Of a stretch of DNA of 64,000 nucleotides, positions 1 to 4,659 are shown one piece after another; position 1 is the first letter of the stretch; the number at the start of each line of letters is the position of its first letter. This DNA is from a bacterium (GTDB lineage Bacteria > Patescibacteriota > Minisyncoccia > Minisyncoccales > GWA2-46-15), in NCBI GenBank assembly GCA_030693425.1, contig JAUYAM010000004.1, positions 23,163 to 87,162 on the forward strand. The letters run 5' to 3'. The position numbers were made by a program, and so were the translations under genes. A model generated the notes under the pieces. The model made no database searches. It was given only the letters and a program-made list of their open reading frames with translations, and was not told the origin of the DNA.

Positions 1-242
1 CAGTTTGGTTCATGGATGACGGCTCCAAAAGCAGAAGCTCTGTGTATCTAAACACACAGCAATTTTCTCTTAAAGACCAGATAAAATTACAGAATATATT
101 GCTTAATCAATTCAATATTCATTCTCGTCTTAATAAAGACAAAAAGTATTTCAGAATCAGGATAATTAGTAGCGACGCAAAAAGATTCTGTGATCTGGTG
201 AAACAGTTTATTCCAAAATCAATGGAATACAAACTGGTGTAA
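1..242 (+). CDS. LAGLIDADG homing endonuclease, C-terminal part (start lies upstream of window)
   Basis: The frame is open from the window edge (..[10 protein letters not shown]..). It has a LAGLIDADG-family WxMDDG block and sits inside a group I intron of 23S rRNA. Confidence 0.7.
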
Positions 243-384
243 TGACCCCGTAGAGACTTGACCAATTGTGGTCGGAGTTTTCTGAAAAATCAGGAAGCTA
301 ACACGCCAACCCCTAATCCGCCACTTGGCGGACGGGTGAAGATATAGTCCGATCCTTCCGGCAACGGAAGACAAATAACGACAG
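1..384 (+). mobile_element. Group I intron 1 (3' part; 5' end outside window), inserted after the equivalent of E. coli U2500
   Basis: Contains the end of a LAGLIDADG ORF, then the group I core GAAGATATAGTCC (GATATAGTCC at 341-350) and a P9-like hairpin. It ends in G384 immediately before exon CGATGTCGG. Confidence 0.75.
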
Positions 385-477
385 CGATGTCGGCTCATCA
401 TATCCTGGGGGTGAAGCAGCTCCCAAGGGTTGGACTGTTCGTCCATTAAAATGGTACGTGAGCTGGGTTCAAACCGT

Positions 478-760
478 ACTACTAGACAATAGTAGGGCGG
501 CTCTGTCAAGTAATTGACAGATGTCCAAAACCGACTTATATCGGTGGAGTCCATAAAAAAAAATTATAACCTGTATTTTTATGGATAATACCGAGGGAAG
601 CGAGCGCATAAGAATTATGCGCTTCGCCCTGTAGAGACTTAGCCAGAAATGGCTGGATGGAAGCTTTAGAGTTTCCATAATACGTCGGTCTCCCTAATCC
701 GCCGGTTGGCGGACGGGATGGTGATATAGTCCATACATCTGGTAACAGATGAATAATATG
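478..760 (+). mobile_element. Group I intron 2, ORF-less, inserted after the equivalent of E. coli U2593
   Basis: It follows exon U477 and ends in G760. The core GTGATATAGTCC is present (GATATAGTCC at 723-732). The flanking exons rejoin to give ..AAACCGT|CGCGAGACAGG... Confidence 0.75.
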
Positions 761-822
761 CGCGAGACAGGTTGGTCCCTATCTACCGCAGGCGTCGAGC
801 CTTGAGGGGAGTCTTCGACAGT

Positions 823-1632
823 AAAAAGATTGCTGCTTCAAGGAGTAATCCTTGATGACAATCTGGCTAATAACGGTGGAGCCTTCATTTAAATTATGAA
901 GAGTTTCTCAAGCATCTAGAAATAGATGAAGATAATTTTTGCCCTAGGTCCGGCAAAATGGTATAATTACTTGAGGACCGCATAATTTTAAGTAAGGGAA
1001 TACCGTGGGAAGACAAACTAAAGTTTTAGAAGTTGATTTGGCTTACATTGCTGGTTTTCTTGATGGCGATGGAAGCATTATGGTTCAGCTGAAAAACAGG
1101 CGGAAAAATCCGCGCGGCTGGCGTTTAATGTTCACTATCTGTTTTTATCAGGATAGTCGCCATGAGAAACCCTTGTTTTGGATTAGAAATAGGCTTGGAA
1201 TTGGTTATATTTCAAGAAGGAATGATGGTATAACAGAGTTAAGAATCAACGGTTATCAAAGAACTAAAGGAATTTTAGAAAGCCTTCAACCTTTTTTAAG
1301 GTTTAAAAAGGCGCAGACTAAAATTCTTTTGAAGATCTTAAGACTAATTAATGATAAGAACTTTGTTGAATTGAGCAAAAAGAAAAGATTGAAAATCGCC
1401 GATATGATTTATGAGTCAAGAAAATTAACTTATCAGTCTGGATGGAAAAAGTTTTCTAAATCAAAATCAGAATTAAGAAAAATCCTAGGATTCTAATAGT
1501 TTGTCCCCGTAACGACTTTTCTTGGTTTTAACCAGGAAGGATGGCGGAATTTGAAACCGTCATAATACGCCGGCTCCCGCTTACAGCGGGATGAAGATAT
1601 AGTCTAAGCTCATAGAAATATGAGACAACTTG
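823..1632 (+). mobile_element. Group I intron 3 with LAGLIDADG gene, inserted inside the sarcin-ricin loop sequence (AGU|ACGAGAGGACC)
   Basis: It follows exon U822 and ends in G1632. The core GAAGATATAGTC is present (GATATAGTC at 1596-1604). The flanking exons rejoin to give CGACAGT|ACGAGAGGACCTCGAAG. Confidence 0.75.
1005..1496 (+). CDS. LAGLIDADG homing endonuclease (intron-encoded)
   Basis: 163 aa with a GTG start. The motif LAYIAGFLDGDGSI is present, and the gene lies within intron 3. Confidence 0.85.
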   Translation: MGRQTKVLEVDLAYIAGFLDGDGSIMVQLKNRRKNPRGWRLMFTICFYQDSRHEKPLFWIRNRLGIGYISRRNDGITELRINGYQRTKGILESLQPFLRFKKAQTKILLKILRLINDKNFVELSKKKRLKIADMIYESRKLTYQSGWKKFSKSKSELRKILGF

Positions 1633-1889
1633 ACGAGAGGACCTCGAAGAACTGACCTCTGGTGTACCAGCTGTTCTGCCAAGAGCATCGCTGGGTAGCT
1701 ATGTCGGGCACGGATAAGTGCTGAAAGCATCTAAGCACGAAGCCAACCCCAAGATTAAGGCTCATTTAGATTTCCCGCAGATCACGGGATTGATAGGCTG
1801 CAGGTGTAAGGCCAGTAATGGCTTCAGCCGAGCAGTACTAATAAATCGAAACCATATTTATTTTCTTACCCTCCTTAATTTCGTAACTT

Positions 1890-2017
1890 ACAGCTAGAGC
1901 AAGGGAGCTTTGCTGGGAGTGCTCCACCTGATCCCATTTCGAACTCAGAAGTGAAATCTCCCAAGGCCGATGATAGTCCTTCGGGGCGAAAGTAGGTAGC
2001 TCTCTTACTCTGGCTGT
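1890..2017 (+). rRNA. rrf: 5S rRNA (including an extended terminal stem; mature ends may be about 1899..2009)
   Basis: Conserved CCACCTGATCCCATTTCGAACTCAGAAGTGAAA and AGTAGG blocks are present. The terminal helix pairs ACAGCTAGAG with CTCTGGCTGT. Confidence 0.9.
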
Positions 2018-2033
2018 AACTAAAAACCAATAA

Positions 2034-2054
2034 ACACGCCCAAGGGCGTGTTTT
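2034..2054 (+). terminator. Rho-independent terminator of the rrn operon
   Basis: Hairpin ACACGCC-CAAG-GGCGTGT followed by a T-run. Confidence 0.7.
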
Positions 2055-3762: not shown

Positions 3763-4659
3763 ATGAATATCCCATTTCTGAAATACACAAAAGTTTATTA
3801 TATTTTTTCTGGAGTTTTGATTCTGGCAAGCTTAATTTCTCTTTTGATCTTTGGCCTGAAATTTAGTATTGATTTTTTGGGCGGAAGCATTTTGGAGGTT
3901 AATTTTGAAAATAGACCGGAAAATTCGGCGATTCAAGAAAAATTAAAAGACATTAACAATTTAGGAGAGATGGTCATTCAACCTACCGGAGCCAAGGGGG
4001 TAATTATGAGAATGAAAGAAGTTGATGAAAATATTCATCAACAGATTATTTCGAGGCTGCAGGAAATCTCAAAAATAGAGGAAAAACGTTTTGAAAGCAT
4101 CGGGCCGGTTATCGGCAAAGAATTACGGCAGAAAACAATAATCTTAATAATTGTTTCTCTGGCAGCCCTGCTCATTTATATTGCCGTTGCTTTTAGAAAA
4201 ATCTCCCGGCCCTTATCCAGCTGGCAATATGGAATAATCTCAATAATTACTCTTTTCTTTGATGTTTTGATACCGATTGGCGTTTTCGCCTCTCTGGGAA
4301 AATTTTATAATGTTCAATTCAGCATCCCAATTGTTATCGCCTTGCTGACCCTTTTGGGTTATACAATTAACGATAAAGTAGTCGTTTTTGACAGGGTTAG
4401 GGAGAATCTTTTAAGAACTAAAGGAGGAGATTTTAATGCCTGCGTTAATCAGAGTTTGAACCAGGTTTTAGTTCGATCAATTAGCACGGGTTCTTGCACT
4501 CTTTTGGTTCTCTTGGCGATATTCTTTTTTGGCGGAGAAACTTTAAAGTATTTTTCTCTAACCTTAATTATTGGAATTATAGTCGGCACCTGCTCGTCTT
4601 TGTTTTTAGCCAGCCCTTTATTGGTAAGCTGGCAGGAGATGGGGAAACGTTATCATTGA
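3763..4659 (+). CDS. secF: Protein translocase subunit SecF
   Basis: 298 aa. It has the IDFLGGS motif and a C-terminal SecD/F-type TM bundle (LLGYTINDKVVVFDRVREN). Confidence 0.9.
   Translation: MNIPFLKYTKVYYIFSGVLILASLISLLIFGLKFSIDFLGGSILEVNFENRPENSAIQEKLKDINNLGEMVIQPTGAKGVIMRMKEVDENIHQQIISRLQEISKIEEKRFESIGPVIGKELRQKTIILIIVSLAALLIYIAVAFRKISRPLSSWQYGIISIITLFFDVLIPIGVFASLGKFYNVQFSIPIVIALLTLLGYTINDKVVVFDRVRENLLRTKGGDFNACVNQSLNQVLVRSISTGSCTLLVLLAIFFFGGETLKYFSLTLIIGIIVGTCSSLFLASPLLVSWQEMGKRYH

Follow-up and report, generated by a model that had tools for sequence, protein, structure and literature searches.

Evidence for three group I introns of one family in the sole 23S rRNA gene of a Patescibacteria genome

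The 3' part of a 23S rRNA gene from a groundwater bacterium of the candidate phyla radiation (CPR; Patescibacteria) is interrupted by three long blocks that break up two universally conserved functional centres within 156 nt, which raises the question of what these blocks are and whether their packing is out of the ordinary. The gene, at about C2:19844-25023, is the sole large subunit (LSU) rRNA gene of a genome (G000) of 848,783 bases (0.85 Mb) in five contigs that is rated 100% complete. The window analysed here is a stretch of 64,000 nt (G000:C2:23163-87162) that starts inside the first of the blocks. A sequence-only reading of the window had proposed three group I introns around exons of 93 and 62 nt, and had called them an extreme case. 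The explanation that we find best, and in which we have high confidence, is that the blocks are three group I introns of one family, inserted after U2500, U2593 and U2656 (Escherichia coli numbering) of this single gene, which would be removed by splicing and would have spread by homing. The arrangement itself turns out to be of a known kind.

Insertion sites and exons

E. coli K-12 rrlB (NC_000913.3, L004:142-3045, 2904 nt) served as the reference, and its numbering was verified by two landmarks, GATGTCGGCTC at 2502 and AGTACGAGAGGACC at 2654, which agree with the textbook numbers. A stretch of the contig that reaches upstream of the window (L002, C2:20698-26511; L002 position = window position + 2465) was used to cover the whole of the first intron. 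On it the LSU covariance model stops early at that intron, and positions were taken from BLAST. The alignment of rrlB with the region was broken precisely at 2500/2501, 2593/2594 and 2656/2657 (table 1). The upstream exon, aligned to E. coli 553-2500, ends at C2:22712, about 450 nt before the window, and E. coli 2657-2890 corresponds to window 1633-1848. This defines insertions of 834 nt after U2500, 283 nt after U2593 and 810 nt after U2656. With cmscan, the LSU model spans the region with three large insertions, which measure 358, 289 and 820 nt in that alignment. The second internal exon is one of 62 nt here versus 63 nt in E. coli.

All three blocks are preceded by U (U2500, window 477 and window 822), end in G and contain the string GATATAGTC, at window 341-349, 723-731 and 1596-1604. 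The exon lengths and the start of the last exon at 1633 given by the sequence-only reading agree with the rrlB alignment at every coordinate; the alignment also returned its proposed insertion points (2500, 2593 and about 2656), and the group I core string was located at the three places it had named. It had further noted the terminal G of each block and a preceding U for introns 2 and 3, and the U is in fact found before all three.

Table 1. Features of the 3' part of the 23S rRNA gene and its surroundings, in window coordinates. R1, custom covariance model of the intron 3' core; ORF, open reading frame; MFE, minimum free energy.
Feature	Position	Strand	Elements	Evidence
Intron 1 (L2500), whole 834 nt, L002:2016-2849, window -449..384; 3' part in the window	1..384	+	P6 3' strand 244-249; J6/7 and P7 5' strand 250-258; P7.1 258-275; P7.2 276-299; P3' 305-309; P8 311-336; P7 3' strand 346-349; P9 355-370; terminal G 384	BLAST to rrlB; sequence; fold without ORF interior; Rfam Intron_gpI; R1
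Intron-1 ORF, 192 aa, full extent L002:2129-2707; 3' end in the window	1..242	+		ORF list; Pfam PF03161; PDB I-SceI
Exon, 93 nt = E. coli 2501-2593 (peptidyl-transferase ring, H89-H93)	385..477	+		BLAST 84% identity, ungapped; LSU model alignment
Intron 2 (L2593), 283 nt, without ORF	478..760	+	P1 474-484/490-500 with U477·G497; P2 502-521; P3 530-535/684-689; P4 541-546/589-594; P5 549-586; P6 595-630; P7 636-639/728-731; P7.1 639-656; P7.2 657-678; P8 691-718; P9 736-751; terminal G 760	MFE fold; helices; Rfam Intron_gpI; R1; covariation
Exon, 62 nt = E. coli 2594-2656 (A2602 region, H93-H94, H95 5' side up to sarcin-ricin loop AGU)	761..822	+		BLAST; LSU model alignment
Intron 3 (L2656), 810 nt, in the sarcin-ricin loop between AGU and ACGAGAGGACC	823..1632	+	P1 819-824/830-835 with U822·G832; P2 838-855; P3 863-867/1569-1573; P4 873-878/1001-1006; extended P5 882-997; P6 1007-1020/1497-1508; P7 1514-1517/1601-1604; P7.1 1517-1540; P7.2 1541-1563; P8 1575-1591; P9 1609-1624; terminal G 1632	BLAST; fold without ORF interior; Rfam; R1; L2656 clade
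Intron-3 ORF, 163 aa, GTG start, in P6 loop	1005..1496	+		ORF; Pfam PF00961; PDB; homologues
Last 23S exon, E. coli 2657 to 3' end	1633..1861	+		BLAST; LSU model alignment to model position 2925
5S rRNA gene, next after 23S	1900..2008	+		Rfam RF00001 63.2 bits

Group I fold and evidence on splicing

Intron 2, the ORF-less and shortest of the three, was folded without constraints together with 10 nt of each exon. The MFE structure has a z-score of -8.4, with none of 100 shuffles folding as well, and its helices follow the textbook order of a group I intron: P1, P2, P3, P4, P5, P6, two hairpins, P3', P8 and P9. In its P1, exon CCGU pairs with GCGG. Folding of introns 1 and 3 after removal of the ORF interior, which lies in the P6 loop, gave the same architecture, with P2.1 added in intron 1 and P5 extended in intron 3. 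In each intron, an internal guide sequence is base-paired to the final 4-6 nt of the exon before it, with a U·G wobble at the 5' splice site (U2500·G, U477·G497 and U822·G832). The P7 strands GACU/AGUC are placed as the pseudoknot demands and agree with the consensus of the Rfam model; the putative guanosine-binding site of P7 thus shows its consensus (AGACU in J6/7 and GAUAUAGUC in the 3' strand). Two extra hairpins lie between P7 and P3' in each intron, which we take to be the P7.1 and P7.2 of subgroup IA in the Michel-Westhof scheme.

Covariation was scored in an alignment (A1) of 10 ORF-less homologous introns drawn from all three sites. RNAalifold yielded P3, P4, P5, P6, P7.2, P8 and P9 from it, and with P7 added 95.0% of cells pair, versus 38-44% when the 3' partners are slid. 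Two-sided (compensatory) changes are found in 27 of 45 pairs, and none of 500 shuffles reached any of the five measures used. P1 was read directly from the sequences. At L2656 its guide covaries with the exon: three genomes combine exon CAGU with GCUG as the guide, and four combine UAGU with GCUA. Every one of the 28 introns extracted from relatives is preceded by U and ends in G. The custom 3'-core model R1 scores introns 1, 2 and 3 at 82.9, 106.4 and 97.4 bits, respectively, and finds exactly three copies in this genome, all within the 23S gene. Shared helices, covariation, the U·G wobble and the terminal G thus support the proposal of three group I introns made from the sequence alone. The evidence for a conserved group I fold is strong; catalysis would be expected from what is known of the family.

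The same features bear on whether the blocks could instead be intervening sequences (IVSs) or expansion segments, which would either be retained in mature 23S rRNA or be excised by RNase III without ligation to leave a fragmented 23S. Known IVS sites are H9, H25 and H45, unlike those occupied here, and an IVS is a short extended hairpin that takes the place of a helix tip and has neither ribozyme core nor splice signature, a description that fits none of the three blocks. Fragmenting IVSs are known in bacterial 23S rRNA, and Tsurumaki, Sato, Saito and Kanai (2024, J Bacteriol 206:e00074-24; PMC11270868) suspect them elsewhere in CPR 23S genes; extra blocks that are not introns also occur in the 5' domain of this very gene, and no spliced junction was observed in the one RNA run compared (X20). 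Set against this is the covariation-backed core found in all three blocks. Each block also ends in G and has a guide that fits the exon preceding it, including the U·G wobble. Inserts of 283-834 nt retained in the peptidyl-transferase ring or the sarcin-ricin loop would, moreover, hardly be tolerable. We therefore regard IVSs or expansion segments as a very improbable account of the blocks.

If the blocks are group I introns, the pre-rRNA would be matured by three independent two-step transesterifications that join the 93- and 62-nt exons, and by analogy with their families the encoded proteins may help as maturases. Because the genome is rated 100% complete and has only one LSU gene, the removal of all three introns, which the sequence-only reading had held to be necessary, is a reasonable inference. 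The structure of the introns, the single gene copy and the literature all point to splicing; insertions in CPR rRNA are described as removed from transcripts (PMC11270868, citing Brown et al. 2015, who were the first to note them).

Several observations weigh against the group I reading. The Rfam model Intron_gpI (RF00028), the scan that had been proposed as a check, does give three matches that are significant by E-value (1.8e-7 for intron 2, 7.8e-5 for intron 3 and 3.5e-4 for intron 1), but their scores of 39.1, 30.2 and 28.1 bits, respectively, all fall below the gathering score of 50, and it is for this reason that the independent structural evidence above was sought. The four P7 pairs are pairable in all 10 introns of A1 yet invariant, and so contribute no covariation signal. 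Self-splicing, maturase help and endonuclease activity are each argued from family knowledge. Finally, the sequencing runs found for the region comprise 20 DNA runs, mostly from groundwater, and a single rRNA-depleted sediment metatranscriptome (X20, with 0.07 of the words), and the region was compared with X20 and with the independent DNA runs X2, X3 and X6. No exon-exon joint of this organism was seen in X20, where exon depth is dominated by conserved sequence of other taxa. Two X20 contigs cross the borders of intron 3, one from exon 3 into the intron (L002:3230-3477) and one from the intron into exon 4 (4065-4210); they come from a near relative, with 3-5 differences, and represent either unspliced precursor RNA or DNA carry-over.

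The DNA runs do contain joints that skip 810, 287 and 874 nt. These occur in contigs whose letters differ from ours and are therefore attributed to intron-less alleles of other organisms; they confirm the intron borders, for example by skipping exactly 810 nt from L002:3287 to 4098. Such alleles also give some substance to the idea that the triple is an assembly chimera of different strains' alleles, or that one or more of its introns are dead, in which case the working 23S would not be this gene. The genome was assembled from a metagenome, many intron-less or differently occupied alleles are present in other groundwater runs, as these joints illustrate, and contigs from independent runs break at conserved exons. 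Run X1, on the other hand, contains all sampled words, and an independent study provides error-free contigs that run from intron 2 into exon 3 (L002:2960-3258) and from exon 3 into intron 3 (L002:3235-3876). The same triple was assembled independently for three relatives (G021, L040 and L046), this is the only LSU gene of a genome rated complete, and both ORFs and all core helices are intact. There is consequently little to recommend a chimera or a defunct gene, and we give either a very small chance; three intact group I introns in the working 23S gene remain the preferred reading.

Encoded proteins and kinship of the introns

Two of the introns had been said to carry LAGLIDADG genes, and Pfam assigns them to different families, LAGLIDADG_2 for intron 1 and LAGLIDADG_1 for intron 3. 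The intron-1 ORF begins in the 3' strand of P5 and fills the P6 loop. Its predicted protein matches PF03161 with 139.8 bits over model positions 2-168 of 168, has two LAGLIDADG motifs and finds its best solved relative in I-SceI (E = 6e-13, residues 8-191). The intron-3 protein has a single motif and matches PF00961 with 42.5 bits, where the cut-off is 23.1. Among solved structures it is closest to I-CreI, I-MsoI and I-CvuI, although these matches are weak (E = 1e-10 to 1e-14 for the natural single chains). D20, Q47 and K98 of I-CreI, which we take to be the catalytic residues, have their counterparts here in a GFLDGDGS motif, a Q and a K. The matches to solved I-CreI and I-SceI chains settle the LAGLIDADG fold of both predicted proteins.

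A scan of species genomes returned 26 homologues of the intron-3 protein, 51-77% identical to it, on contigs labelled Nealsonbacteria, Paceibacterota, Parcubacteria, Giovannonibacteria, Berkelbacteria and others; the closest endonuclease homologue is labelled Ca. Nealsonbacteria. In all 26 cases ACGAGAGGACC, with which E. coli 2657 begins, follows 128-201 nt downstream, which places the homologues in an L2656 intron. All 26 frames are likewise uninterrupted, and the motifs GF.DGDGS, CFYQ and FK..Q are invariant. Such a picture is what one would expect of a homing endonuclease lineage that is active and site-specific, with sarcin-ricin-loop DNA as its predicted target, a site for which the literature consulted names no characterised enzyme. 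Decay of the gene is seen elsewhere: the L2656 intron of one relative (G016, L016:1715-2153:-) measures 439 nt and retains only the N-terminal LAGLIDADG stretch. At L2500, the intron closest to intron 1 is that of the same-genus genome G007 (L008:1255-1982), which has 82% identity in the 3' core and is 106 nt shorter; its BLAST pieces skip query positions 343-474, within the endonuclease ORF, which suggests a deletion there.

The kinship of the introns was examined in a tree of the ORF-free 3' cores of 28 introns. The cores group by insertion site rather than by genome, with three site-label changes compared with a mean of 13 after shuffling, and those from L2656 are united in a single clade (SH-aLRT 97). 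The nearest relatives lie in G007 for intron 1, in G017, G029 and G006 for intron 2 and in G021 and G028 for intron 3, so that each intron is closer to same-site introns of other genomes than to its neighbours in the same gene. Recent copying among the three within this genome was rejected on this ground. Since the cores cluster by site, the three introns represent old, site-specific lineages of one family. Each of the two endonucleases would cleave its own site in 23S rDNA that lacks the intron, and in this way the introns would spread by homing, and intron 2, without an ORF, would be a stage in the usual cycle of endonuclease gene gain, decay and loss.

Intron 2 is separated by only 62 and 93 bp from two introns with endonuclease genes. 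One could thus imagine that it persists by hitch-hiking rather than as a decaying relic, the three introns moving as a linked unit, as break repair begun at L2656 or L2500 could co-convert intron 2 into new 23S alleles. The nearest relatives of the three introns are, however, in different genomes, which disfavours this idea, and we consider it unlikely.

Occupancy among relatives and known systems

The region was compared by BLAST with 40 relatives, which yielded 30 loci in which the three sites were scored by exon anchors. Twenty-nine of these loci come from relatives, all of the same order, and 26 reach this part of the 23S gene. Introns occupy L2500 in 12, L2593 in nine and L2656 in seven of the 26, while in seven relatives (G018, for example) all three sites are empty. 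Each site has both long ORF-bearing and short ORF-less forms. All three sites are also filled in at least three other species, with insertions of 280, 694 and 807 nt in G021 (represented by L009/L044), 287, 250 and 799 nt in L040, and 364, 638 and 820 nt in L046. In a survey with R1 of 151 genomes of the order, this one included, 75 had at least one core and 15 at least three; the highest counts were five cores in three genomes and four in two. Three cores in G146 lie about 370-390 nt apart, and in G007 an exon of 11 nt (L008:1983-1993 = E. coli 2501-2511) separates an L2500 from an L2511 intron.

These figures do not sustain the view of the sequence-only reading that the locus is an extreme case, that is, of exceptional intron packing beyond known CPR rRNA genes. 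Three cores do place the genome in the top 15 of the 151, and two conserved centres are interrupted over a very short distance. Nonetheless, five surveyed genomes have four or five cores and those of G146 are closely spaced; the same three sites are filled in G021, L040 and L046, the exon in G007 is far shorter, and as many as 16 insertions have been published for one gene, the group I sites being concentrated towards the 3' end of 23S (PMC11270868). Given the triple occupancy, higher core counts and 11-nt exon elsewhere, the arrangement is not extreme, and the chance that it is exceptional is in our view minimal. It is a case of a known kind that is common in CPR bacteria and was already catalogued in 2024.

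Other features of these genes were noted in passing. The L2511 intron of G007 measures 832 nt; it contains a GATATAGTC core as well as an open frame of 198 aa in which two LAGLIDADG-like motifs can be discerned by eye, and the alignments of G005 and G025 are likewise broken near 2511. In the present genome, the 5S gene is followed directly by a GC-rich hairpin (CACGCCC..GGGCGTG) and a T run (window 2022-2050), probably the terminator of the rRNA unit. The 16S rRNA gene (1441 nt, G000:C3:72890-74330) lies on another contig than the 23S and 5S genes and has no R1 core. Upstream of the window, the 5' domain of the 23S gene (L001:1787-2330) exceeds the Rfam LSU model by four further blocks, none of them a group I intron. 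Three measure about 79, 70 and 40 nt (model positions ~285, ~312 and ~425, respectively); the fourth, of at least 90 nt, lies at ~583 in the H25 region, a classic IVS site.

With the peptidyl-transferase ring and the sarcin-ricin loop of a single-copy 23S gene both interrupted, ribosome production would depend on three ribozymes. The locus shows a catalogued CPR feature in clean form, with all its parts intact, and leaves the understanding of rRNA introns unchanged. Its practical value is modest, lying in intact members of two endonuclease lineages, one of them I-CreI-like and tied in 26 of 26 cases to sarcin-ricin-loop DNA, and in a compact predicted ribozyme of 283 nt with covariation-supported helix maps.

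Among known systems, the closest are the CPR hot spots of the 2024 paper, which reports that 82% of CPR 23S genes have insertions, as many as 16 in one gene, that the group I sites tend towards the 3' part and that LAGLIDADG_1 genes are predominant at 1917, 1931, 1952, 2593, 2604 and 2657 (PMC11270868). Introns 2 and 3 are at listed frequent sites, 23IS12 (2593) and 23IS14 (2657), the published 2657 being the 2656/2657 junction here. L2500, occupied in 12 of the 26 relatives scored here, may correspond to one of the numbered sites 23IS9-11. The paper states that the sarcin-ricin-loop site is unreported outside CPR, and a literature search for group I introns at L2656/L2657 likewise found nothing beyond it. 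The present locus resembles these hot spots in host group, in the two sites, in group I structure and in the LAGLIDADG_1 gene at 2657, as well as in the occurrence of ORF-containing and ORF-less forms at one site and in the concentration of multiple insertions in the 3' part of 23S. It differs by the ORF-less form at 2593 and the LAGLIDADG_2 gene in the L2500 intron. Per-helix covariation and guide-sequence analysis of these introns, as given here, are absent from the paper.

Beyond CPR, intron 2 lies at the identical site, after U2593, as the Cr.LSU intron of the Chlamydomonas reinhardtii chloroplast 23S gene, the home of I-CreI. The intron-3 protein is single-motif like I-CreI, I-MsoI and I-CvuI and keeps the positions of the catalytic D, Q and K. 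In contrast to Cr.LSU, the L2593 intron is gene-less here and the I-CreI-like gene sits in the L2656 intron, and its target must therefore be sarcin-ricin-loop-coding DNA. The intron-1 protein, for its part, is comparable to I-SceI of the yeast mitochondrial omega intron, also a monomeric two-motif LAGLIDADG_2 protein encoded in an LSU group I intron of the peptidyl-transferase region; the two differ in site (L2449 in yeast, L2500 here), in length (235 versus 192 aa) and in host, which here is a bacterium. Multi-intron LSU rRNA genes of the same sort are known from Coxiella burnetii and green-algal chloroplasts. Those of cyanobacteria (Haugen et al. 2007, PMC1995217) likewise contain several endonuclease-encoding group I introns at conserved sites of functional importance, L2593 among them. 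In cyanobacteria and C. burnetii the introns number two or three, most of them near 1917-1951 and 2593.

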